Shown: positions 4,255 through 22,349 of the stretch, piece by piece
How positions within the stretch are numbered: the stretch's first letter is position 1
Layout: each line of letters opens with the position of its first letter
Assembly: GCA_013152795.1 (NCBI GenBank)
Contig: JAADFS010000028.1
Location: forward strand, 1 to 62,543
DNA from: Deferribacteres bacterium
GTDB lineage: Bacteria; Nitrospirota; Thermodesulfovibrionia; UBA6902
DNA length: 62,543 bases
Direction of reading: 5' to 3'
Position numbers and translations under genes: made by a program
Notes under the pieces: model-generated
The model's database searches: none
What the model saw: only the letters and a program-made list of their open reading frames with translations
What the model was told of the DNA's origin: nothing

Positions 4255-4792
4255 TTAAATCCTCCACTTTTACCTTGAATATTTCAGCAAGTTTTTTTAA
4301 CGTGCTGGTCGGAACGTTGTATCCAACCCTCTCCATCCTGCTTATATTGGGCTGTGCAGTCCCGAGCTTTCTTGCAAGAGTTTTCTGGTCCATCCCGTTA
4401 AGGAGCCTGTGATATTTTATGGGACTCATTCTCCCCTGGCTGACAAGTTCCTTCCATTCCTCATTCTGGTCTTTCCAGGCCCTCTCCCAAGCCCTTTTCC
4501 CTTCAGCAGTAGAAGTAAACTCCGCTACTATTTCCTTCAGGGGGATGGCTTCCCCATCCAATGCTGCCTTCAACTCTAATGTCTTGATCTCGTCCTGCAG
4601 GAACTTTACAAGTCTTTTAAGTTTTTTATTCTCGGTTTTTAATTCTCCAATCTGTTTATCCTTAATTGAATCACATGTCTTACATATTTCATCTAACTCA
4701 ACAGGCATTCCCTTTGGGACAGACAAGCTTGGCATTATCCAGGTAAAGCCGGTTTTGCGGGAGTAAGTAATCCGTTCTCTATATGAGCTCAT
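4244..4792 (-). CDS. XRE-family HTH antitoxin (HigA-like) with long N-terminal coiled-coil region
   Basis: C-terminal MDQKTLARKLGTAQPNISRMERG-like helix-turn-helix. Start placed at ATG 4792, which forms an ATGA overlap with the toxin stop. The upstream ATG at 4843 cannot be excluded. Confidence 0.7.
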   Translation of the reverse strand: MSSYRERITYSRKTGFTWIMPSLSVPKGMPVELDEICKTCDSIKDKQIGELKTENKKLKRLVKFLQDEIKTLELKAALDGEAIPLKEIVAEFTSTAEGKRAWERAWKDQNEEWKELVSQGRMSPIKYHRLLNGMDQKTLARKLGTAQPNISRMERVGYNVPTSTLKKLAEIFKVKVEDLIGD

Positions 4793-5768: not shown

Positions 5769-6413
5769 TCATTCCGTGTCCCGGCACTCTCCTGTATGCG
5801 GGGCCGTTGAGACCCGATCCCGTTTCCGCATCAGGCATGCCCAGGAGCGGGGAGCCTCCGGCAGCTTTGAATCAAACCGCGTGCTCCTGAGCAGGAGTAT
5901 CTCGAACCACGGCTCCACCGCGGATACAATATCGAGCGCAGAACGCCTCGGCGGGCCTTCCTCCCGCTCCGGTCCGTCGGCGCTGCCCATGAGGCTGAAC
6001 CAGTGACCGCCCGGGCCCAGGCGCCTCCACACGGTTTCGGCCAGCCGCGCCCTCTCCTCGGGGAGATCGAAGGTATGAAAACACCCGCGGTCGAATACGA
6101 ACCCGAAGGGCCCCGGCGGCAGCTCGTCCCTGAGTATGTCCGCAACGATGAATTCGACCTCCACGCCAGCGGCGGATGCCTTCTTGCGTGCCATCCCGAC
6201 CGCAGTCGGCGACAGGTCGACCGCGGTCACCCTGAAGCCCTTCCGGGCCAGCCATATCGCATCGGTGCCGGTTCCTGCGCCGAGCTCGAGGACGGTGCAT
6301 GGAGCGATACCGTACTCGCGTATGACGAGCTCGAGGTTTCGGTCGTGTCTTCCTGTATCCCAGGGCAGGTCGCCGGTCCTGTAACGCTTGTCAAAGTCCC
6401 TTGTCCGTTGCAT
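5769..6413 (-). CDS. class I SAM-dependent methyltransferase
   Basis: VLELGAGTGTDAIWLARKGFRVTAVDLS (motif I plus acidic loop). Start trimmed to MQRTRDF (ATG 6413), preceded by AGGAGG. The longer ORF N-terminus is low-complexity. Confidence 0.8.
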   Translation of the reverse strand: MQRTRDFDKRYRTGDLPWDTGRHDRNLELVIREYGIAPCTVLELGAGTGTDAIWLARKGFRVTAVDLSPTAVGMARKKASAAGVEVEFIVADILRDELPPGPFGFVFDRGCFHTFDLPEERARLAETVWRRLGPGGHWFSLMGSADGPEREEGPPRRSALDIVSAVEPWFEILLLRSTRFDSKLPEAPRSWACLMRKRDRVSTAPHTGECRDTE

Positions 6414-12342: not shown

Positions 12343-12419
12343 TGGGGTGAGCGATGGGACTCGAACCCACAACCACTGGAGCCACAGTCCAGTGCTCTAA
12401 CCATTGAGCTACGCTCACC
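12343..12419 (-). tRNA. tRNA-His (GTG anticodon)
   Basis: Reverse complement GGTGAGCGTAGCTCAATGGTTAGAGCACTGGACTGTGGCTCCAGTGGTTGTGGGTTCGAGTCCCATCGCTCACCCCA folds as a cloverleaf. Has the extra G-1, loop CTGTGGC and an encoded CCA. Confidence 0.9.
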
Positions 12420-12557: not shown

Positions 12558-13634
12558 TCAACCGGTTATTTCATTTTTCGTGTAGTCATTGTTGACTACA
12601 CTGTTCGGTTTTAAATTCAATCCTGCATTTTCAAGTGCATTTTTTTTATTCTCTAACGCCACATGGGTATAAAATTCCGTTGTTGCAATCTGAGCATGGC
12701 CGAGGATTTCCTGTATTGTGCGCAGGTTGATATCCTTTGCCAGCAGGTGAGTTGCCAGGCTATGGCGGAGCAGGTGCGGATGGATGTGTTTATTAATCCC
12801 TGCTTTTTTCTTTGCCCTCTGTATTGCCCTTCTTATGTCCCTGATCGGCCTTGCACCGTTGACCGGTGAAGGGAAGACCCATTCTGAGCCGGTCGACTTG
12901 AGCAGGTCCTTCAATTCATCGTGCAGCCAATCCGACAAGGGCAGAACATTGGTTTTGTCCCCCTTCCGTCTGACCATTATGGCCCTGGTCTCCCAGTCGA
13001 TGTCTGTTCGTCTCAACATTCTTGCCTCGCTGAACCGAAGGCCGAGGTTGAACATGACAAGGAACATAACACGGTACACCGGGGAATCAGCGGCCGCGAT
13101 GAAGCGGACAGCTTCCTCAAATGTAAGCACCTGTGGAATAGGTCTTTTATATGGCAATTTTTCAATCTTCAATACCTCGGCGGGCCTCAGGTTCATGTTT
13201 TTGTCAGCCCATTTCAGGAAGGCTGCAAAGTAATCGAGCTCTTTGTTGATTGACCTGTTCCCTGCATTTTTCCCGCGGAAATCTTCTTTTCTCTGTTTCT
13301 GGTATAGCTGGAGCAACCTGTTTGTAATGTCATGGATCCGCATGGTTCCGAAGAACGGCACCAGATACCTCTCAAAACATTGCTTCTTGTCCACGAGGGT
13401 TTTCTTTGCCTGGTGCAGACGGACATACTCGAGGTATGCCGGGACCATTGCCTTGATAGGATCATTCAGGGCAACAAGCGGAGATGCTCCGCTCTTTTTC
13501 CGCATCTCTGCCTCAATTTCCCTTGCCTCATTTTCGGTTGTCCCTTCCGGAAGAGTAATACGCCGCCTCTTCCCCTTCCTGCCGTGGGGATAATAATCTA
13601 TGACGTATTTGCCGTTTCGGATACGGATAGACAT
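12558..13634 (-). CDS. phage integrase, tyrosine recombinase
   Basis: GLRFSEARML (Arg), HPHLLRHSLATHLL (HxxR), LGHAQIATTEFYTHV (His/Tyr). Adjacent to the tRNA-Arg fragment. Confidence 0.9.
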   Translation of the reverse strand: MSIRIRNGKYVIDYYPHGRKGKRRRITLPEGTTENEAREIEAEMRKKSGASPLVALNDPIKAMVPAYLEYVRLHQAKKTLVDKKQCFERYLVPFFGTMRIHDITNRLLQLYQKQRKEDFRGKNAGNRSINKELDYFAAFLKWADKNMNLRPAEVLKIEKLPYKRPIPQVLTFEEAVRFIAAADSPVYRVMFLVMFNLGLRFSEARMLRRTDIDWETRAIMVRRKGDKTNVLPLSDWLHDELKDLLKSTGSEWVFPSPVNGARPIRDIRRAIQRAKKKAGINKHIHPHLLRHSLATHLLAKDINLRTIQEILGHAQIATTEFYTHVALENKKNALENAGLNLKPNSVVNNDYTKNEITG

Positions 13635-13678: not shown

Positions 13679-14287
13679 CTATAATTTAGACAGCAAATCC
13701 TTCTTTTTTTCCTGGAACTCTTGTTCTGTCAAAATGCCTTGTTCTTTCAATTCAGCCAATTTTTTTATCTGCTCCGGGATATCAATATTAGAGTTGGCCT
13801 CTATGGGTGTTGAATGTTTCTTGCCGATATTTTCTTTGACATAATTAACAAACGCATGAACATTTCCCTCGCTTATCCATTTCATGGACACCTTGTTACC
13901 AGATGCAAATAGCGTAATTGTATGCCCCATGAATCCCTTGCTTATATCGATTGAAGATATATTTGAATAAGGAAAAACCTCTAAATCATAACCAAGCATT
14001 TTTTTAGCGTAAAAAACGACTTTCTCGTTAGTCGCCAGGAAGATGCCGCTCCTGATACTCTCTTTACCTAATATTTTTGTTTCATAAGTGCCGAGAACTG
14101 ATGCGATGATTTTTTCGTCCTTATTCAGGTGTTCCGATGAAAGCTGAATAAGTTTTTGATGCTTGGTAAGTTTCTCTGGTTTTTTGTCCGAGTTGGGAGT
14201 TTCAGCAGTCGTTTGAGCTTCCATAGCACTTTTCAGTTTCTCAGCCTTCCATTTCTCATATTCCTCTCTACTTTTCCACTGTGCCAT
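13679..14287 (-). CDS. bacterial PH-domain (YokE-like) plus C-terminal SHOCT-domain protein, lysogeny-side moron
   Basis: GIFLATNEKVVFYAKK..SSIDISKGFMGHTITLFASGNKVSM (bPH-like). KKLAELKEQGILTEQEFQEKKKDLL (SHOCT pattern). Confidence 0.55.
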   Translation of the reverse strand: MAQWKSREEYEKWKAEKLKSAMEAQTTAETPNSDKKPEKLTKHQKLIQLSSEHLNKDEKIIASVLGTYETKILGKESIRSGIFLATNEKVVFYAKKMLGYDLEVFPYSNISSIDISKGFMGHTITLFASGNKVSMKWISEGNVHAFVNYVKENIGKKHSTPIEANSNIDIPEQIKKLAELKEQGILTEQEFQEKKKDLLSKL

Positions 14288-14317
14288 GGGGTTGTCCTCC
14301 TTGCAACAAATGCTGAA

Positions 14318-14962
14318 CTAAACCTTCAAGGGCCTCCATCCCTTGATGACCTTGCCCATGATCTGATAGTGCCTGTTCGGCTTCAGGGTCGGATATTCAG
14401 GATTGTCGCTCACCAGGAACTTTTCCCCGTCTTTTTCCCTGTACCGCTTGATCATGGATTCGCCCCATTCATTGTTGACGATGACAATATCACCGCTCCG
14501 GATTTCTTCGTTCGGCCTGAAGATGACATAGTCCCCATCCCGGAACGTCGGGCTCATGCTGTCACCCTTCACAATGAGTGCATATGCTCCCTTGGGTACC
14601 TCCGGTATATTGATATAGTCAATTATGTCGCTTTCAGGGATGTGTTCAGGAAAACCGGCCGGCACCCTGCCGAGCACGGGGATGCTCTCTGTCAATGAGA
14701 AGGCCCCCGGGATTCCTGATTTCTGAAACATATCTCCTTCGCCGGTTTTTAACCAATGTTCGTCAATTCCATATTTGAGACATATTAACCTGACAATTTC
14801 TTCCGGGATTCTTGTTTTTCCAAGTCTGTAATCCGACAGCCGGTTTTTGTGAATTCCGAGATCTTCGGCCATTTTTTTAGTATTTAAATGAAATTTATCA
14901 ATAACCCTATCTATTCGCTCGCCTATAGATCCCCTTGGCGGTTTATTACGCTTTCTTGGCAT
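14318..14962 (-). CDS. CI/LexA-like repressor (XRE HTH plus S24 peptidase domain)
   Basis: N-terminal HTH KKMAEDLGIHKNRLSDYRLG. C-terminal GDSMSPTFRDGDYVIF..MIKRY Ser/Lys dyad. Confidence 0.85.
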   Translation of the reverse strand: MPRKRNKPPRGSIGERIDRVIDKFHLNTKKMAEDLGIHKNRLSDYRLGKTRIPEEIVRLICLKYGIDEHWLKTGEGDMFQKSGIPGAFSLTESIPVLGRVPAGFPEHIPESDIIDYINIPEVPKGAYALIVKGDSMSPTFRDGDYVIFRPNEEIRSGDIVIVNNEWGESMIKRYREKDGEKFLVSDNPEYPTLKPNRHYQIMGKVIKGWRPLKV

Positions 14963-14966
14963 TGCA

Positions 14967-14987
14967 ATAGACCGTAATATTGTCTAT
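14967..14987. promoter_or_regulatory. candidate operator palindrome ATAGAC-N9-GTCTAT just upstream of the repressor start
   Basis: Perfect 6-bp inverted arms. GTCTAT recurs at 15192-15197. Lies in the divergent immunity intergenic region. Confidence 0.4.
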
Positions 14988-15260
14988 ACTTATAACCATG
15001 ATGGCCCTGAATTCAGCAAACACAAAACCCTCCCTTGGTTGTAATTTCGGCGCCACCGAAATTATACCACAGGGTAGGGATTTTTTCACCCACCACCGCC
15101 CCCTCATCGTGGTGGGCAACTCCCCGGCATGCCGGTCTCTGCCTGCCAGACAGGGCCATCACCTTGACCGTCATGCCGGGGCCTTTTACCTGTCTATCCA
15201 TACAATGATTATATGCCCTTATCTCCATAAGGGCAATTATAAGTTGGCTCGGGGGTTATA

Positions 15261-15722
15261 ATGACTTCTTATGATGCTCTGAACAAGGCCATTGGGGGAA
15301 AAACGAGGGAGCATGCCAAGGCCCTCGGTCTCAGCACAGCCCTGCTGTATAAGTGGCAGGAGCCCTCAACGGATTGGACAGACTCAGGCTCCTACAACCC
15401 CCTCGACCGCATAGAGACGATCATAGAGACAGCGCTCAAACTTGGGCAAGGCAGAAATGATGCCTTTGCTCCTCTTCATTACCTCGCCCGCCGTTTCAAC
15501 CAGATTTTGATTCCTGCCCCCTCAAGTGCTACCTGCCTTAAAGAACTGCAGCAGGCGCTTATGAAGACAATAAAGGAGTTTTCAGACCTCGCGCGGGCCT
15601 CGGCCGCCGCCCTCGAGGACGGCAGGCTCGACCCACGTGAGGCAGAGCAGATAAAAAAGGAAGGCTGGGAGCTCATCGAGCAGGCCTCGGCCTTCGTAAA
15701 GTTAATCGAGGACTATCTATGA
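15261..15722 (+). CDS. phage regulatory protein, CII/CP76-like HTH
   Basis: N-terminal EHAKALGLSTALLYKWQEP HTH-like segment. First gene transcribed divergently from the repressor. Confidence 0.5.
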   Translation: MTSYDALNKAIGGKTREHAKALGLSTALLYKWQEPSTDWTDSGSYNPLDRIETIIETALKLGQGRNDAFAPLHYLARRFNQILIPAPSSATCLKELQQALMKTIKEFSDLARASAAALEDGRLDPREAEQIKKEGWELIEQASAFVKLIEDYL

Positions 15723-15946
15723 ATGATATCCTGGTTCGTCTTCAGATACTGGAGAAGAAAGTAGACAAAATGCTTGAAAAAATGGGCATCGACATTGATG
15801 AGGAGGAAGAGTTCCGGACGGCAATAGACTATGCCGTGAGGACCCTTGATTTTTCACTGATCAAGGCGCATCTCCGCAAAAAAATAGAAAGGGAGGGGAG
15901 ACTCAATGGAAAGAGTAAGCATAGAAGAACTGAAACTTCCAGATGA
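15719..15946 (+). CDS. hypothetical protein
   Basis: ATGA overlap with the upstream stop. Charged, coiled-coil-like 75 aa. Confidence 0.4.
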   Translation: MNDILVRLQILEKKVDKMLEKMGIDIDEEEEFRTAIDYAVRTLDFSLIKAHLRKKIEREGRLNGKSKHRRTETSR

Positions 15947-16160
15947 AATCGCCTTAACCAACAGCTTTCATGTCTTCTGTATCGACGAGATACAACCAAT
16001 ACTCAAAGAAGCTCTGATCAGGAAGCATCCAACCGCTGCATATTGGGATGTTCAGAACAGGACATTCCTTCTGTTTGATGAGGCGCTGAACCTGTTGGAT
16101 GCCTTGACCATTGATGACATCGATCAATTAAAGGAGGGGGACAGATGTTTGACAAGCTGA
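15906..16160 (+). CDS. hypothetical protein
   Basis: ATG preceded by GGGAGGGGAG. 84 aa. Confidence 0.4.
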   Translation: MERVSIEELKLPDEIALTNSFHVFCIDEIQPILKEALIRKHPTAAYWDVQNRTFLLFDEALNLLDALTIDDIDQLKEGDRCLTS

Positions 16161-16648
16161 CAAAAGTGATCGTCCTGATCGCAATTGGATGGATTCTCGG
16201 GTATATGCATCATTTCATGGTGACAAGAGACATCCTTCAGGATTTCAGCAACAGGATCTTGTGGCTTGAGCAGGATATGAGCCTTGCAAACGCAGGGATA
16301 TCTCAGGTCTTCAAGGAAGTCATCACTCTCAATCAAAAATTCAATATCGGGAGTGATTTCAAGGTCACCGGCTATTCGAATGACCCCGGATCAATCAATG
16401 TCCCGCGCTGGCGTGACGGAAGGACTGCCACCGGAGTGAAGGCTACACCCGGGATCTGCGCGGCCGACTGGGATTTGATCCCGGTTGGAACTCTTGTCTG
16501 GATAGATGATTACGGCTGGTGTGAAATCCAGGACAGGGGCGGCAAGGTAAAGGGAAGGCATATCGATCTTTTCTTTGATGATGTGCTTGATGCAAAGAAT
16601 TGGGGTGTGAGAAAGACTGATATAGTCATTGCTGATCTGGAGGAGTAG
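16145..16648 (+). CDS. membrane-anchored 3D-domain (RlpA/MltA-like double-psi barrel) protein
   Basis: N-terminal TM helix VIVLIAIGWILGY. FKVTGYSNDPGS..TATGVKATPGICAADWDLIPVGT..IQDRGGKVKGRHIDLFF matches the 3D-domain pattern. Confidence 0.7.
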   Translation: MFDKLTKVIVLIAIGWILGYMHHFMVTRDILQDFSNRILWLEQDMSLANAGISQVFKEVITLNQKFNIGSDFKVTGYSNDPGSINVPRWRDGRTATGVKATPGICAADWDLIPVGTLVWIDDYGWCEIQDRGGKVKGRHIDLFFDDVLDAKNWGVRKTDIVIADLEE

Positions 16649-16664
16649 CTCCCCCGCCCTCCTG

Positions 16665-16745
16665 ATGCCGTGGGGATAGGGTTCCGGACCCGACAAGGTG
16701 AATGCCTCCACCTTCCCCACGGCATAACCAGAGGCGATTTGGCAA
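16665..16745 (+). ncRNA. structured leader element, copy 1 (see findings)
   Basis: 11-bp outer helix ATGCCGTGGGG/CCCCACGGCAT encloses a 45-nt core identical to 17543-17587. Conserved tail AACCAGAGGC. Confidence 0.5.
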
Positions 16746-16865
16746 GGAGATGCTTTATATCCTGCATATCAAGGATTTTGCTGGTGTAAAGGACATAGTT
16801 GCATACACATGTGTTCTTTCAACAATCAGTGGGCTCTACAGCACATTGCCCCAGGGAGTGAATTG

Positions 16866-17528
16866 ATGAGCACAACCCTTGAATCTGTTGCAGAGAAACA
16901 TACTGATCAGGATATATGTCCCCGCTACCCCGGCAACCCGACCAGGACAGACTTGATGTGCGCCACAAGGCATAAGAAGGCCGTAAGGGATCCGGAGAAG
17001 ATCCTTTATTCGAATTGTGCTGACTGCAATATCGGTAAAGAGGCAGCAATGAAGGATATCAAACCGATCAAATATACAGCCAAGCATACATCGACCGATA
17101 CACATCCCTGTTCGCAGTGTGGCAGGCCTACCCGGGGCAAGTTATGTGCCGGATGTTTGCTCCAGGGCAAGTCAGGCTCTTCCAGGGAGACAAAGGAGAC
17201 AGAAATGCAAAAACAAAAGATCTGCAAGGTTGAAGGATGCGGCAATCCTTTCAAAGCAAGAGGTTATTGTGACAAGCACTATAAAAATGCCGTTAAAACC
17301 GGTGAGATTAAGACTACACCCAGGAATAAAAAGAAGATCAATCCTCAACCGGAGAAGCAGGAAACGTGCAATGCAGAGAATATGACCGCCATGCTTGCCC
17401 AGCTTCTCTATTGCAGCCGGGTTCTCGATTCCGAAATCAACGCCGCCATGCTTCAGAACAGGATCGAGATCAAGAATATATCCGATGTAAGGTTCCGCCT
17501 TGGAGAGATAATGAGAGGGGCTCTATAG
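16866..17528 (+). CDS. Cys-rich (zinc-ribbon-like) hypothetical protein
   Basis: CSQCGRPTRGKLCAGC and CKVEGCGNPFKARGYCDKHY motifs. ATG 16866 preceded by GGGAG; ATG 16809 is an alternative start. Confidence 0.5.
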   Translation: MSTTLESVAEKHTDQDICPRYPGNPTRTDLMCATRHKKAVRDPEKILYSNCADCNIGKEAAMKDIKPIKYTAKHTSTDTHPCSQCGRPTRGKLCAGCLLQGKSGSSRETKETEMQKQKICKVEGCGNPFKARGYCDKHYKNAVKTGEIKTTPRNKKKINPQPEKQETCNAENMTAMLAQLLYCSRVLDSEINAAMLQNRIEIKNISDVRFRLGEIMRGAL

Positions 17529-17536
17529 TCCCATCG

Positions 17537-17623
17537 CCTGCAGGGATAGGGTTCCGGACCCGACAAGGTGAATGCCTCCACCTTCCCTGCAGGACAACCA
17601 GAGGCATATATGGAAAGGAGGCA
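17537..17623 (+). ncRNA. structured leader element, copy 2, immediately 5' of the recombinase/Cas12-like operon
   Basis: 9-bp outer helix CCTGCAGGG/CCCTGCAGG around the same 45-nt core. Loop TGCCTCC (17573-17579) is complementary to the SD GGAGGCA (17617-17623). Confidence 0.5.
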
Positions 17624-17627
17624 TTCC

Positions 17628-18236
17628 ATGACAGCAGAGAGGACATCAACAAGGACAAGGGCCGGAGAGAACTATCTCACCGAGCAGGAAGAGAAAAGGC
17701 TTTTCAGACACCTGAAGGGCCTGAAATCCCGCCAGGCAGAGCGTGACTATGTGCTCCTGAAGCTCTGCCGGCTGACAGGGCTCAGGAGGGCTGAGGCACT
17801 GGCCCTCAATGTGGGGGATGTGATCAACCAGAAGAGAATAATCATCGACGAACGGATCGCGCGCAAGGGGGCCGTGGGGGAAGTCGGCATCCCGGTGGAA
17901 CTGCAAAAAATCATCAAGCGGTTCCTCTGGCTTAAGCGCACCTGGCGCGAAAGCCTTGATGACGAGGCCCCTCTGTTCGTGAGCAAGAGGGGCAACAGGC
18001 TCTCTCTGAGGGCCTTCAACGACCTGATGGACAAGTGGTGCAGATCGGCGGGGATCCCGCGCTATACTCCGCACGCCCTACGTCACACAAAGGCGCACAG
18101 GATACTTGAGAAGTCGGACAACCCTCCAAAGGCCCTGGTATATGTCAACAATCAACTGAGGCACAAGTCCTACAACTCGACACTCGTATACACCCTCCCT
18201 ACAAAGGAAGAGAGGGAGAAGGTGGCAGGGCTGTAA
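17628..18236 (+). CDS. minimal tyrosine recombinase (catalytic domain only)
   Basis: GLRRAEALAL (Arg), HALRHTKAH (HxxR), LRHKSYNSTLVYT (His/Tyr). About 200 aa with no N-terminal SAM-like core-binding domain. ATG 17628 preceded by AAGGAGG. Confidence 0.8.
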   Translation: MTAERTSTRTRAGENYLTEQEEKRLFRHLKGLKSRQAERDYVLLKLCRLTGLRRAEALALNVGDVINQKRIIIDERIARKGAVGEVGIPVELQKIIKRFLWLKRTWRESLDDEAPLFVSKRGNRLSLRAFNDLMDKWCRSAGIPRYTPHALRHTKAHRILEKSDNPPKALVYVNNQLRHKSYNSTLVYTLPTKEEREKVAGL

Positions 18237-18237
18237 C

Positions 18238-19761
18238 ATGGCGAACCATTTCAACAAGGGAGTCGTGTTCGGAAAACTGGCGGGGCTTGAACGGAAGAAA
18301 TCCGAAGGGGGCAAACCCTACATCCAGATATACCTCGAATGCCCGAACGATCTCCACGGGGATGCAAAGGTTTACGGCCGGATGTGGGGAGAAGACAGGG
18401 TCAATGCCTTCATGGCCGGGCTGAACAGAGACGGCAAGCTCCTCATGGGGACCGGGCTCAGGCTTGAAGGATTTTTCAGCCAATACGACGCAGAGGACGG
18501 TCTCTACTGGGCCAATGCGGCACATCTCAAGGACAAGTTCATGAATGCCTACTTCTCGTCTCTGAGGCATGGCAGGAAACTTCACTTCCATGCCTTTGAC
18601 GGCAACCTCAGGTTTGAGCATGTCTTCACATCCGGGGGGATCCCGGCTGAGAAGATCTTCACCGACAATCCAAGGCAGAAACGTATCAGGATAACTCCTA
18701 TTTCCCGGGATATCTACCAGGACAGGCAGCGGGGCATTATCTCTCAGCGGGAGATGAAACGAAAGGCGCGCACCGAGGCGTTGATAACGCTTGCAGGCCT
18801 CCAGATGAGGTTCCGGACCATATTGCACCGGCCGGTGCCGGAGGGGAGCATCCTCAAGAAAGCCGTCATCAAGCGGATCAGGACCGGGAGGTACAACTAC
18901 AGGTGGACTCTCTCGCTGACCGTAGAGGTCCCGCCGGATGATTCGATGCCCGCAGGACAGGCACCCGCCGGCAAGACGGCAGGGCTCGACGTCGGTTACA
19001 GGATGATCGACGGCCGCCTGCGTGTTGGCTATCTGGCTGGAGATGCCGGACAGATGGAGATATACCTGCCCGGCCGGATAATGGAGCGGTTCATCCATGT
19101 GCAGGAGCTGCAACAGAAGAGCGACGCCCTGCTTGAGGAGATGAAGGCACGCCTGGTCGAGATGCTCCCCGAGGGGCTCCCAGCGGAGCTGAAAGCAAAC
19201 TGGCATATGGCAAGGCACGGAAGGCTCAGAAAGATTATCCGTTGGCTTGCGGATAACAGCCCTGAACATATAGCCCTCAGGGAACTGCGGAAATGGGAGC
19301 GGCAGGATGCAGCGATACAGAATGAGAAGGAGGGACTCAGGAGGCGTGCAATCAGGCAGAGGCAATGGTTCTACTACAACCTCGCGCACAGGCTGGCCGG
19401 AGAGTATGGGACCCTTGTGATCGAATCTCTCAAGCCCGGCGACCTGCAGAGGAAGACCCAGCTTGATGACGACCGGACACTGCCCCGGAGAGCGTCTTTC
19501 TATCGAGGTATCGCTGCCGTTGGTGCTTTGCTCGACATTATTCAGGATGTCGGACGCCGAAAGGGCATGACGGTCCACAAGGTTGATCCCGCATACACCA
19601 CGTTGACCTGCCATGTCTGTGGTCATGTGGTAGAACCCGTTGACAGGGCCAGCCTGCTCTGGTGCTGCGACGGCTGCGGATCCGAGTGGGACCAGGACTA
19701 TAACGCTGCGTATAACCTCTATATGAGTGGAAGGGAGAGCAAAGAGGCAAAAGTTGCATAA
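18238..19761 (+). CDS. TnpB/Cas12-like RuvC nuclease, putative compact type V CRISPR effector
   Basis: 507 aa. RuvC-I TAGLDVGY (D251), RuvC-II TLVIESL (E396), RuvC-III WDQDYNAAYNL (D486/D488). Zinc ribbon CHVCGH..CCDGCG. DPAYTTLTC linker as in TnpB. Followed 47 nt later by a CRISPR array. Confidence 0.8.
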   Translation: MANHFNKGVVFGKLAGLERKKSEGGKPYIQIYLECPNDLHGDAKVYGRMWGEDRVNAFMAGLNRDGKLLMGTGLRLEGFFSQYDAEDGLYWANAAHLKDKFMNAYFSSLRHGRKLHFHAFDGNLRFEHVFTSGGIPAEKIFTDNPRQKRIRITPISRDIYQDRQRGIISQREMKRKARTEALITLAGLQMRFRTILHRPVPEGSILKKAVIKRIRTGRYNYRWTLSLTVEVPPDDSMPAGQAPAGKTAGLDVGYRMIDGRLRVGYLAGDAGQMEIYLPGRIMERFIHVQELQQKSDALLEEMKARLVEMLPEGLPAELKANWHMARHGRLRKIIRWLADNSPEHIALRELRKWERQDAAIQNEKEGLRRRAIRQRQWFYYNLAHRLAGEYGTLVIESLKPGDLQRKTQLDDDRTLPRRASFYRGIAAVGALLDIIQDVGRRKGMTVHKVDPAYTTLTCHVCGHVVEPVDRASLLWCCDGCGSEWDQDYNAAYNLYMSGRESKEAKVA

Positions 19762-19808
19762 CCCCGGCTTTAATATGCTGAAAAGAAACAGGAAAAGAGA
19801 GGGGTGCA

Positions 19809-20111
19809 GTAGGAAAACTGGGTCCAGGTCAGGAAGCCTGGAACAGGGACAATCCCTGAGGGGATAGGAAGGCGGGCCTGTAGGAAAACTGGGTCCAGGT
19901 CAGGAAGCCTGGAACTCCGGATGGTGATAAATTTTTCCATGTTTAAGTAGGAAAACTGGGTCCAGGTCAGGAAGCCTGGAACTGGGGATCAACGGGTTTC
20001 TTGCCGCCGCTTTCTTGGTAGGAAAACTGGGTCCAGGTCAGGAAGCCTGGAACTGGCGTTCAGGATAGCAAGTCCGTCCGCGATGCTGGGTAGGAAAACT
20101 GGGTCCGGAAC
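19809..20111 (+). CRISPR. CRISPR array: 4 identical 36-nt repeats, 1 truncated terminal repeat, 4 spacers
   Basis: Repeat GTAGGAAAACTGGGTCCAGGTCAGGAAGCCTGGAAC at 19809, 19880, 19947 and 20018. Spacers of 35, 31, 35 and 36 nt, all different. Terminal unit 20090-20111 is GTAGGAAAACTGGGTCC+GGAAC. Confidence 0.9.
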
Positions 20112-20198
20112 GACCAAGTTCACCGGTGAGCGGTAGCGAGTTCGGTGCAGCGCATTGTTGGGCCTGATGGCCTTAATCTAAATACAGGAGGTTACGCT

Positions 20199-20387
20199 AT
20201 GAAACTGAGGAACATTCTTATCATTCAGGCTATTATCGTTCTGTTCATTGGTATAGGCTGGGTGAAAAATCTTATTAAACTCGCACATTGTGATTTTGAG
20301 GCCCCATATCAGGCTGAGGTTATCTATGCCGCTGGCTTGATTCCACCTGTGGGGGCTATAACCGGCTGGCTTGACCTTGGGAAGTGA
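20199..20387 (+). CDS. small membrane protein
   Basis: ATG 20199 preceded by CAGGAGG. Two hydrophobic helices (ILIIQAIIVLFIGIGWV, IYAAGLIPPVGAITGWL). Confidence 0.45.
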   Translation: MKLRNILIIQAIIVLFIGIGWVKNLIKLAHCDFEAPYQAEVIYAAGLIPPVGAITGWLDLGK

Positions 20388-20395
20388 GGTGAATC

Positions 20396-20737
20396 ATGAA
20401 AAACAAAGGCTTTACTTTCATCGAACTTCTTATCATCCTCGCAATGGCCGGGATTGTTGCGACCATGTTCTTTGGCTTGGTCGTAAATAATCGTGGGGCA
20501 ACCGAGCGCAGGGCCTTCGCCGGGGCAGTGAAATTTGCAACCGGCAACAATATTACAGTCAAGCGCATTTCATGTGCCGGAGATTCAAACCGTGACGGAT
20601 ATGGCACTTGTGCCATTTCCACGGAAGATAATCAGCGTATAATGCTCCAGTGCCCGACAGATTATTTTGACGTTGAATGGTTCGGAGCAAGCGGCTGTAA
20701 AGAGGTTTTCCAGGATTTCAATTTTACGATTAGATGA
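20396..20737 (+). CDS. type IV pilin-like / pseudopilin protein with prepilin N-terminal methylation motif
   Basis: MKNKGFTFIELLIILAMAGIVA is the canonical G|FTxxE prepilin signal. Four Cys in the C-terminal part. Confidence 0.7.
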   Translation: MKNKGFTFIELLIILAMAGIVATMFFGLVVNNRGATERRAFAGAVKFATGNNITVKRISCAGDSNRDGYGTCAISTEDNQRIMLQCPTDYFDVEWFGASGCKEVFQDFNFTIR

Positions 20738-20765
20738 GGATAGGCTCAACCTTCAAGGAGTAGAT

Positions 20766-21107
20766 GTGGAATATAACTGGCACAGAGAAGTCATTGACAA
20801 GGCAACCAGGGCCATATCGCGGCACGCGCAGAAGCTGTACGACGAGGGCCTTGATCTCAGCGGATGGTTCTCTTTCTTTGAGAAGAATCATCCAGAGGTC
20901 TTCAGCAAGTATCTGAAGATACCCGAAAGGCTCAACAGGGCGAAGGCTAAAAACTCCATGTCGGAGTTCAAAAAGATAGCAAAAGAATACCAGGACACCG
21001 AGATATGGGCAATCAACCAGTTCGCAGAACACCTTGAGAAGGAAAAAACCAAGGCCCTTGAGGCCATGAGGGAAAAACGGAGAGATCCGCAGGAGGTGCT
21101 TATATGA
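20766..21107 (+). CDS. hypothetical protein
   Basis: GTG 20766 preceded by AAGGAG. The longer ORF from 20667 overlaps the pilin-like gene. Confidence 0.4.
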   Translation: MEYNWHREVIDKATRAISRHAQKLYDEGLDLSGWFSFFEKNHPEVFSKYLKIPERLNRAKAKNSMSEFKKIAKEYQDTEIWAINQFAEHLEKEKTKALEAMREKRRDPQEVLI

Positions 21108-21448
21108 CACATGAGGAGTTCAACGAGGTCCTCGAAGCACGATTCGAGAAAAGCCGCATGGTACTTGCAAAAAAGGCCGGAGAATACGCCCGGGGCGACC
21201 GGCTCAGCAACTTCAAGAAGGCTGCCGGTGCACTCCAGTGCACTCCGCACAAGGCCCTTGTCGGCATGTGGATGAAGCACATCATCAGCATCATCGACAT
21301 GGTCGACGACATGGAGAAAGGTAAGGACACATCTTACATTATATGGGATGAAAAGATCGGCGATGCAATCAATTACCTGATACTGCTTGATGGATTGGTC
21401 TGTGAGGGCCTTGGCGTCAAACCAACTCAAGAGGTTGAGAATGTTTGA
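21104..21448 (+). CDS. DUF1599-like (nucleotide-modification-associated domain 1) protein
   Basis: GDRLSNFKKAA..ALVGMWMKHIISIIDMV resembles the DUF1599 pattern as recalled. ATGA overlap with the upstream stop. Confidence 0.45.
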   Translation: MTHEEFNEVLEARFEKSRMVLAKKAGEYARGDRLSNFKKAAGALQCTPHKALVGMWMKHIISIIDMVDDMEKGKDTSYIIWDEKIGDAINYLILLDGLVCEGLGVKPTQEVENV

Positions 21449-22349
21449 TCGCATTGAAAAAGGCCTCTGGTGGGACAGGGCTTGGACTCTTGTGGAAGGA
21501 TGCACCAAGGTAAGCCCTGCCTGCCGGAACTGCTGGGCCGAGAGAGATGCATGGCGGAAGTCTCATCAGAAAAATGAAAAAATCAGCAGGCGGTATGAGG
21601 ATCTCCTGGATGAAAACGGACACTGGACCGGCAGGATCCGCTTGATGGAGAATTTCGACATTCCTTGCCTGATCAAGAAGATCAGAAGACCTACGGTCTT
21701 TGCAATCTGGAATGACCTGTTTCATGAGAATGTGCCCAGACTATACATTGAACACGCTCTCATTGTAATGGCGCTTCTTAAGAAACATGTCTTTCTGGTC
21801 CTGACTAAAAGAATCGACAGAGCAAAAAAGATTTTGGATACCCCTGCGCCGAATATCTGGTTCGGAGTCACAGCGGAGAATCAGGAACAGGCAAACAGGC
21901 GGATACCAACACTCATGCAGATACGAGCAGCAAAGCGGTTCGTTTCCATTGAGCCTATGCTGGGGCCCGTAATTTTAGAGAAATGGCTTGCGGACAGAAA
22001 ACTGGATTGGGTCATCCTCGGCGGTGAGACAGGCAAAAATGCCCGGCCCATGCATCCCGGTTGGGCGCGCAAGGTCCGGGACGACTGCCAGGCGGCGGGG
22101 GTGCCGTTTTTCTTTAAGCAATGGGGGGAGTGGTTGCCTGATCGCCAACTCTTCAATCACCCTCAAGGCCCGGGGGGGAAACTGATGCTTACCTTAGAGC
22201 ATAATTCACCCAAGGCGATTGCTACACGGCAAAAGCTACAAATCACAACAATTTGCCATCATGGATTTACTACCACCTTTGCCCATGTCGGCAAGAAGGC
22301 TGCTGGCGCGTTGCTTGATGGCAGGGAATGGCGCGAGGTGCCGGAGTGA
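21441..22349 (+). CDS. phage Gp37/Gp68 family protein (DUF5131)
   Basis: N-terminal WDRAWTLVEGCTKVSPACRNCWAE matches the family signature W.p..GC...S.gC..CyA. ATG 21441 overlaps the upstream stop. Confidence 0.65.
   Translation: MFDRIEKGLWWDRAWTLVEGCTKVSPACRNCWAERDAWRKSHQKNEKISRRYEDLLDENGHWTGRIRLMENFDIPCLIKKIRRPTVFAIWNDLFHENVPRLYIEHALIVMALLKKHVFLVLTKRIDRAKKILDTPAPNIWFGVTAENQEQANRRIPTLMQIRAAKRFVSIEPMLGPVILEKWLADRKLDWVILGGETGKNARPMHPGWARKVRDDCQAAGVPFFFKQWGEWLPDRQLFNHPQGPGGKLMLTLEHNSPKAIATRQKLQITTICHHGFTTTFAHVGKKAAGALLDGREWREVPE

Follow-up and report, generated by a model that had tools for sequence, protein, structure and literature searches.

Why does the early operon of a prophage carry the same 45-nt sequence twice, each time closed by a perfect helix of different sequence, and what does this repeated element do? 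The question is raised by contig JAADFS010000028.1 (assembly GCA_013152795.1), from a metagenome-assembled genome (MAG) labelled Deferribacteres. The entire contig, 62,543 nt long and carrying a prophage from about 12.3 kb, was analysed and is called the window below. Copy 1 of the element precedes an orphan cysteine-rich gene, and copy 2 a tyrosine recombinase gene that is followed by a Cas12-type gene. Judging from its sequence and its placement in related genomes, we consider the element to be a 5′ leader that a widespread family of temperate prophages places, within its early operon, before the gene of a small tyrosine recombinase. The two elements are slightly divergent copies of a catalogued RNA motif, int-alpA, and not a new class of RNA.

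Two copies of one three-way junction

The core, GGGATAGGGTTCCGGACCCGACAAGGTGAATGCCTCCACCTTCCC, is present exactly twice in the window, at 16673-16717 and 17543-17587, as a preliminary description of this DNA had reported. No third copy was found in the 62.5 kb with up to 3 mismatches allowed, and 0 of 100 shuffles gave a match. A repeat search lengthens the shared stretch to 63 nt at 92% identity. The outer helix is ATGCCGTGGGG/CCCCACGGCAT in copy 1 (11 bp) and CCTGCAGGG/CCCTGCAGG in copy 2 (9 bp); the two differ from each other, yet both are perfectly self-complementary, in agreement with the earlier reading. The tail AACCAGAGGC was likewise recovered in both copies, at 16726-16735 and 17596-17605. 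Core and 10-nt tail are 100% identical between the copies, and the outer 6-8 bp of the closing helix (P1) are wholly different, each perfectly compensated.

Taken alone, each copy has a three-way junction as its minimum-free-energy fold, and in both this fold agrees with the two inner hairpins (P2 and P3) that had been proposed within the core. The fold energy is −33.6 kcal/mol for copy 1 (z −4.4) and −29.3 kcal/mol for copy 2 (z −4.3); none of 200 shuffles of either copy was as stable as the native sequence. The parts of the two copies, together with those that follow copy 2, are listed here.

16665-16675 / 16715-16725, + strand: copy 1, outer helix P1
16676-16678, + strand: copy 1, junction J1/2 (AUA)
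16679-16691, + strand: copy 1, hairpin P2
16692-16694, + strand: copy 1, junction J2/3 (GAC)
16695-16700 / 16709-16714, + strand: copy 1, hairpin P3, with loop AAUGCCUC at 16701-16708
16731-16735, + strand: copy 1, tail box GAGGC, complementary to the P3 loop
17537-17545 / 17585-17593, + strand: copy 2, outer helix P1
17546-17548, + strand: copy 2, junction J1/2
17549-17561, + strand: copy 2, hairpin P2
17562-17564, + strand: copy 2, junction J2/3
17565-17570 / 17579-17584, + strand: copy 2, hairpin P3, with loop AAUGCCUC at 17571-17578
17601-17607, + strand: copy 2, proximal tail box GAGGCAU, 7 bp possible with the P3 loop (pseudoknot or decoy)
17610-17630, + strand: copy 2, hairpin P4, AUGGAA-AGGAGGCA-UUCCAU, fold −6.0 kcal/mol
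17618-17624, + strand: copy 2, Shine-Dalgarno (SD) box GAGGCAU in the P4 loop
17628-17630, + strand: recombinase start codon, partly in the 3′ arm of P4

Possible causes of the divergence of P1 around an identical core are gene conversion of the core, descent from two related source phages, or selection against mispairing between copies that share a transcript. The CCTGCAGG of copy 2, palindromic and an SbfI/PstI site, forms both a direct and an inverted repeat. Insertion of a mobile element into palindromes was considered and rejected, because copy 1 has no direct repeat and the element occupies a fixed, single-copy position in other genomes.

The element accompanies a small tyrosine recombinase

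The recombinase behind copy 2 (202 aa) consists of the catalytic domain only, and its R, K, H, R, H and Y columns are invariant among homologues. The family counts more than 200 homologues, of ~203-208 aa and 55-83% identity. Loci of this family were fetched from genomes, metagenomes and viral contigs by means of an alignment of the recombinases, and were numbered (L-loci). This alignment was needed: exact DNA scans for the core or its halves gave no match in viral or metagenome contigs, and single-protein searches with the recombinase or the Cys-rich protein returned no loci from viral contigs.

Direct reading of the 260 nt upstream of each recombinase homologue revealed the same architecture. 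With a covariance model built from the two window copies and iterated once (R2), the element was located in 27 loci from genomes or metagenomes, and 13 of the 17 viral contigs have it as well. In these approximately 40 loci the element always precedes the recombinase gene, in the same orientation. Only the window, with two copies in one operon, departs from the rule of one copy per locus. Related loci have a conserved order: integrase, CI, CII, leader, recombinase, an unknown 200-aa protein (“F1”) and primase. In L005 and L008, the same leader, P4 included, stands in front of a DUF6874 gene that itself precedes the recombinase, which suggests that the module serves whichever gene comes first.

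In 19 of 29 leader loci, a same-strand open reading frame (ORF) located upstream has its stop codon 4-16 nt before P1, and in three further loci the upstream reading frame is closed by the conserved UAG of the junction itself. This tight spacing hints at a coupling to upstream translation.

All three helices covary among homologues

Covariation was measured on a 29-sequence alignment (A6). Standard pairs occupy 90.1% of the cells, compared to 67.1% in shuffles and 36-56% when the partners were slid. Pairs that change on both sides number 19 out of 20, a count matched by 0 of 500 shuffles. For P1, 98.7% of the cells are paired and a compensatory change is seen in 8 of its 9 pairs; for P3, all 6 pairs covary. 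The raw sequences display perfect but dissimilar P1 helices in nearly every locus. The unpaired residues of the junction are highly conserved, and the helices covary freely. Because all three helices covary across the 29 homologues, the earlier view of a conserved, structured RNA-type element holds.

The element belongs to the int-alpA family

The preliminary description had not recognised a known class. Default Rfam scans, of the whole window and of a 1.1-kb stretch, indeed gave no match at either copy. Each copy was also scanned within a 121-nt stretch, where the search filters are laxer, and there both align with RF02996, the int-alpA RNA (model length 71 positions, curated gathering cut-off 35.8 bits). 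Copy 1 scores 35.3 bits (E 2.7e-6, model 1-71 of 71), 0.5 bits under the cut-off, and copy 2 scores 32.1 bits (E 1.8e-5, model 1-71 of 71), 3.7 bits under it. The default scan missed both copies because these scores fall below 35.8 bits. Elements upstream of orthologous recombinases pass the cut-off, at 48.9 bits (L040), 40.9 bits (L023) and 38.9 bits (L029), and that of L019 stays under it at 35.0 bits; five elements from viral contigs pass as well (L055, 51.2; L059, 50.4; L060, 49.9; L054, 45.4; L056, 43.8 bits). A total of 8 positionally orthologous elements are thus above the cut-off, and our own model R2 ties them to the window copies, which it scores at 80.6 bits (copy 1) and 87.1 bits (copy 2). 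A loose resemblance to guanidine-III had been mentioned as well; it found no Rfam match, as the short-stretch scans returned no riboswitch family, guanidine-III (ykkC-III) included, at E up to 10 for either copy.

The int-alpA model and the window copies have P1, P2 and P3 in the same order, with a P1 of about 8-11 bp that encloses a short P2 hairpin and a P3 hairpin. In the model, the junction consists of UAG after P1, CGAAAAG between P2 and P3, and CUG before P1′; the junction residues of the window, AUAGGG, CCCGACAAG and CUU, align to these conserved positions (cUAG..., CGAAAAG, CUG), and the consensus among homologues is AUAGGG / CCCGAAAAG / CUU-CUG. The model also has a 3′ purine box (...AgGG) complementary to its P3 loop (CCuU), as is the case for the window loop GCCUC and tail GAGGC. 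The window copies differ from the model by a longer P2 (5 bp), by GACAAG as J2/3 and by CUU as J3/1. Given the same layout, the same junction residues and the same purine box, we conclude that they are slightly divergent members of int-alpA, and we are highly confident that both are structured elements of this family tied to the recombinase.

As the family name implies, int-alpA is presumably located next to integrase-family or alpA genes. In the window, the PF00589 recombinase gene starts 35 nt after the end of copy 2, and copy 1 precedes an orphan gene instead. The hosts of the present subgroup are prophages of Desulfobacterota, Nitrospirota and ‘Deferribacteres’ MAGs. The motif was defined by Weinberg et al. 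(2017, Nucleic Acids Res 45:10811, PMC5737381), whose main text does not discuss it, and is otherwise mentioned in a genome-scan table of PMC12370729.

A loop with two alternative partners in front of the recombinase gene

In copy 2, the segments that had been noted as complementary are all found in place: TGCCTCC in the loop (17573-17579), GAGGCA in the tail (17601-17606) and GGAGGCA at the SD (17617-17623). Boxes downstream of P1 were defined in the homologues by the pattern G[AG]G[AG][CT]. The tail box lies 5-13 nt after P1, and the distal box 3-5 nt before the start codon, where it overlaps the SD; P4 and this distal box, 13-76 nt downstream, are conserved in cis. Both boxes are present in 24 loci, and in each of these the five core positions of the P3 loop are complementary to the tail box and to the SD box alike; the proposal of a loop able to pair with either partner stands up to this comparison. 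Two loci are compensatory in all three segments, L023 (loop ACCUC, tail GAGGU, SD box GAGGU) and L018 (loop GUCUC, tail GAGAC, SD box GAGAC), and four other loop/box variants are wobble-compatible. When partners were shuffled, the observed pairing was equalled 251 and 301 times in 20000 (~1.3-1.5%). The loop-tail pseudoknot helix is 93.6% paired across the 29 sequences.

About 20 of 24 loci have a P4 hairpin, and its stems covary. They read AUGGAA/UUCCAU in the window, CAUAG/CUAUG in L034 and CACGAU/AUCGUG in L012, whose GUG start is paired with an upstream CAC; AUGAC/GUCAU is a further example. The duplex energies calculated for copy 2 are −14.3 kcal/mol for loop-SD and −11.8 kcal/mol for loop-tail; the calculated value for a generic 16S anti-SD with the SD of copy 2 is −11.6 kcal/mol. 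We consider copy 2 to be a complete, canonical leader of the recombinase gene.

These features suggest the following mechanism, of which a version with two states is the most economical. The element would act on the mRNA, with the P3 loop, (U)GCCUC, serving as an anti-SD. Paired to the proximal box GAGGC(A), a decoy close to the 3′ end of P1, the loop would form a pseudoknot and leave the SD free. Paired to the distal, SD-overlapping box in the P4 loop, it would make a kissing-loop contact that blocks 30S binding or initiation. The choice between decoy and SD would then set, or switch, the translation of the first gene after the element. The balance could be shifted by a protein, by a ligand bound at the conserved junction, by temperature or by a ribosome terminating 4-16 nt before P1. 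Such a ribosome would melt P1 at its 5′ strand, an indication that upstream translation may be coupled to the element. This arrangement resembles SD-sequestering leaders and pseudoknot riboswitches, which likewise have an anti-SD with alternative partners and a start codon in a weak hairpin. It differs from SD-sequestering leaders in general by a decoy box identical to the SD box, which is unusual, and by the lack of a match to any riboswitch family.

Several observations weigh against this interpretation. An alignment fitted to a covariance model leans to the structure of that model, which inflates the pair counts. The wobble asymmetry in P1 is weak (6 G-U versus 1 A-C), so that a folded single-stranded DNA (ssDNA) stays compatible with the data; an assignment of the strand from wobble pairs was dropped for this weakness, the counts for P2 and P3 being confounded by the alignment. 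Since loop, tail and SD boxes hardly vary in most cases, a few lineages supply the covariation of the pseudoknot. In L049, loop and tail covary (GCCCC / GGGGC) and the SD box remains GAGGC, and L010 and L032 keep only 4 bp; these exceptions leave loop-tail pairing with stronger support than loop-SD pairing. Coaxial stacking of P1 and P3 would, by its geometry, make a linker of 5-13 nt short for reaching the P3 loop. Rfam classes int-alpA as an sRNA (small RNA) gene, and not as cis-regulatory. Lastly, a -10-like enrichment 4-7 nt upstream of P1 would have suggested a promoter of its own at P1; it is explained by the stop codons of the upstream ORFs, with which it coincides, and this idea was rejected. 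A promoter candidate at 17501-17529, TGGAGA-17-TATAGT, was set aside along with it.

That the element works by cis translational gating of the first downstream gene, the likeliest of its possible functions, is a proposition on which our judgement is evenly balanced; the explanation as a whole, an int-alpA recombinase leader including the cis mechanism, we hold to be somewhat probable. A bolder version is possible but doubtful: int-alpA would be a three-state translational switch, whose anti-SD loop toggles between decoy and SD and times the mini recombinase within the early operon, driven by a phage protein, a junction ligand or an upstream terminating ribosome, the second copy with its re-coded P1 supplying the loop in trans.

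Copy 1 lacks the distal part of the leader

Copy 1 keeps the junction and the tail box, with a loop-tail duplex of −9.6 kcal/mol. Neither a second GAGGC box nor a canonical P4/SD hairpin was found in 16736-16865. At the two candidate starts downstream, the loop of copy 1 pairs at −5.7 and −4.7 kcal/mol, which is no good partner compared to the −14.3 kcal/mol of copy 2. As regards the 38-codon ORF described after copy 1, its coordinates (16750-16866, with the TGATG overlap at 16864-16868) are correct. The sequence AAGGAG (16744-16749), described as SD-like, directly abuts the ATG at 16750 with zero spacer and therefore makes a poor ribosome-binding site; the ORF itself is a doubtful gene. The Cys-rich gene has a better start of its own, ATG 16866, 7 nt after AGGGAG (16853-16858). 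Its product has no Pfam family and no homologue among 5.8 billion proteins; weak matches to PHROG HNH-endonuclease families were obtained (1e-7 and 5e-6).

Co-control of the Cys-rich gene by copy 1, as first suggested, is therefore unsupported: the distal SD box and the SD hairpin are absent, and the loop has no good partner at either start. Copy 1 looks like a partial duplicate, or paralogue, that lost the distal SD box and P4. The duplication probably accompanied the acquisition of the Cys-rich gene, and copy 1 would be either a relic of this event or an extra source of the anti-SD loop.

Other explanations for the element

The last possibility leads to a trans-acting RNA. The junction could be cut from the operon transcript as a processed sRNA, similar to c4, whose loop represses mRNAs with a GAGGCA box at the ribosome-binding site, copy 1 doubling the dose. 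Rfam does type int-alpA as ‘Gene; sRNA’, function unknown; in copy 1 the junction and loop are intact and a target in cis is missing; and the compact, P1-closed fold, at −29 to −34 kcal/mol, would make a stable processing product. In the immI region of phage P1, c4 comes from the same transcript as its target, and its loops match nearby sequences as well as the ribosome-binding site of the downstream gene; this antisense RNA works through two loops, and processing releases it for action in trans. The likeness of our element to c4 of phages P1 and P7 (RF01695; a1/b1 and a2/b2 targets, RF03163) is mechanistic only. Our element uses a single loop, and its layout suggests action in cis. The c4 model RF01695 gave no match at the element in Rfam scans, and it does detect true c4 RNAs in the related prophages L062 and L057.

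In these two prophages, matches to C4 antisense RNA, c4-a1b1 and isrK were observed at 6189-6394 (L062) and 4592-4673 (L057), 1.6-3.3 kb downstream of the recombinase. The same prophage family thus also uses RNA immunity modules of the phage P1 type, which lends a c4-like sRNA some credit. Against it, no terminator was found after either copy, the element always stands on the same strand and immediately upstream of the gene that carries the box, it is single-copy in the other loci, and P4 and the distal box are conserved in cis. We regard a processed trans-acting RNA as unlikely to be the explanation; trans action may nevertheless be compatible with cis action.

A ligand riboswitch, in which the junction (AUAGGG, CCCGAAAAG, CUU/CUG) forms a pocket for a small molecule or an ion whose occupancy decides between decoy and SD pairing of the P3 loop, would account for a conserved unpaired junction amid freely covarying helices, and for a loop with two alternative partners. 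But control of a prophage recombinase offers no metabolic reason for sensing a ligand, no riboswitch family of Rfam matches, and the aptamer would be small, ~57 nt. A conserved junction is equally well explained by protein binding or tertiary folding, and we judge a ligand sensor distinctly unlikely.

The constant proximity of a tyrosine recombinase gene also suggests a DNA site for the enzyme, lox/dif-like or, as ssDNA, attC-like, the two copies being the ends of an excisable cassette around the Cys-rich gene. The window does have one direct repeat on each side of a single orphan gene, the one with weak HNH-like matches, and RNA and ssDNA motifs are indistinguishable from sequence alone according to Weinberg et al. 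(PMC5737381). The element is like attC in being structured and strand-specific, with a fold conserved over the sequence of its helices and a tyrosine recombinase at hand. It is, however, single-copy in all other loci and therefore does not function there as a cassette boundary. The helices vary freely among recombinases that are 55-83% identical, which is unexpected for sequence-specific binding arms, and the R″/R′ core sites of attC are missing, as no GTTRRRY was found on either strand of either copy. Integron integrases are expected to carry an extra domain, for which a 202-aa recombinase is too short. Finally, only an mRNA would have a use for complementarity to the SD and for a hairpin covarying with the start codon. 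We consider a recombination site very unlikely.

The prophage and its Cas12-type neighbour

The surroundings of the two copies are as follows.

12346-12418, − strand: tRNA
12558-13634, − strand: integrase, 358 aa
14318-14962, − strand: LexA-like CI repressor
15261-15722: CII-type regulator
16145-16648: 3D-domain protein
16665-16735, + strand: copy 1 (junction and tail)
16866-17528, + strand: orphan Cys-rich gene
17537-17630, + strand: copy 2 leader, including P4
17628-18236, + strand: tyrosine recombinase, 202 aa (PF00589 at 8.8e-22)
18238-19761, + strand: Cas12-type gene
19809-20111: small CRISPR (clustered regularly interspaced short palindromic repeats) array

The tRNA gene adjoining the 358-aa integrase likely marks the left end of the prophage, so that the first ~12.3 kb of the contig are probably host DNA. 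A blastn search of 14001-22000 against known phages gave no match, and the tblastn matches of the recombinase to known phages are all at or below 31% identity. A hairpin of ~170 nt was observed in L023 (1931-2104), with sub-threshold matches to plant microRNA precursors on both strands; it is probably a long inverted repeat, unrelated to the leader.

The Cas12-type ORF is of Cas12m / V-U1 type (PADLOC Cas12u1 2.6e-58, profile 131-530 of 533; Cas12m chain 23vw_A of the PDB 5e-44, query 86-496 versus chain 156-569). Its first ~93 residues share up to 53% identity with the N-terminus of the 200-aa gene that follows the recombinase in other prophages, and the C-terminal half of that gene is absent from the window. 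From this foreign N-terminus and the partial profile match, the ORF is chimeric and lacks the N-terminal 130-155 residues of Cas12m; a functional fusion and a decayed effector are both conceivable. The array comprises four identical 36-nt repeats (GTAGGAAAACTGGGTCCAGGTCAGGAAGCCTGGAAC), then a 22-nt terminal repeat whose internal hairpin is deleted, and four spacers of 31-36 nt, none of which matches elsewhere in the window. Spacer 1 shares GGGGATAGG with copy 1, probably by chance. No cas1 or cas2 was seen in the neighbouring ORFs examined.

Only four remote homologues of the Cas12-type protein were found among 5.8 billion proteins. In two of their loci, an array lies directly downstream of the effector homologue (L001, 11972-12593; L002, 5133-5236), and the element is absent from all four (L001-L004). 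The joint control of the recombinase and the Cas12-like gene put forward in the preliminary description thus loses its second term: the motif accompanies the recombinase in ~40 fetched loci, all of them without a Cas12 gene, it is not CRISPR-associated, and its link to the Cas12-like gene is incidental.

It is barely credible that the element is an anti-repeat, as in a trans-activating CRISPR RNA, for the Cas12m-type array, with P2 (GGGUUCCGGACCC) pairing to the repeat flanks GGGUCC...GGAAC: the reverse complement of P2 (16679-16691 / 17549-17561) does contain GGGTCCGGAAC, the last 11 nt of the truncated terminal repeat (20090-20111), but this match is also found in 16 of 1000 shuffles before correction for multiple comparisons and splits into 6 + 5 nt with full repeats, the P2 sequence is not conserved in the homologues, none of which has a CRISPR locus, and the repeat has a 3′ hairpin of its own, so that the idea was rejected as probable chance.

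Significance

No new RNA class emerges from the analysis, nor any functional connection between the element and the CRISPR effector next to it. For annotation, it indicates that the Rfam cut-off and the speed filters miss this subgroup in a normal scan. Beyond the 3′ end of the Rfam model, two further parts prove to be conserved: an SD box with the sequence of the tail box, and a hairpin that holds the start codon. A divergent subgroup of int-alpA is tied to a family of ~200-aa tyrosine recombinases and to the early operon of temperate prophages, and a motif so far defined by bioinformatics, without an assigned function, gains a testable mechanism.

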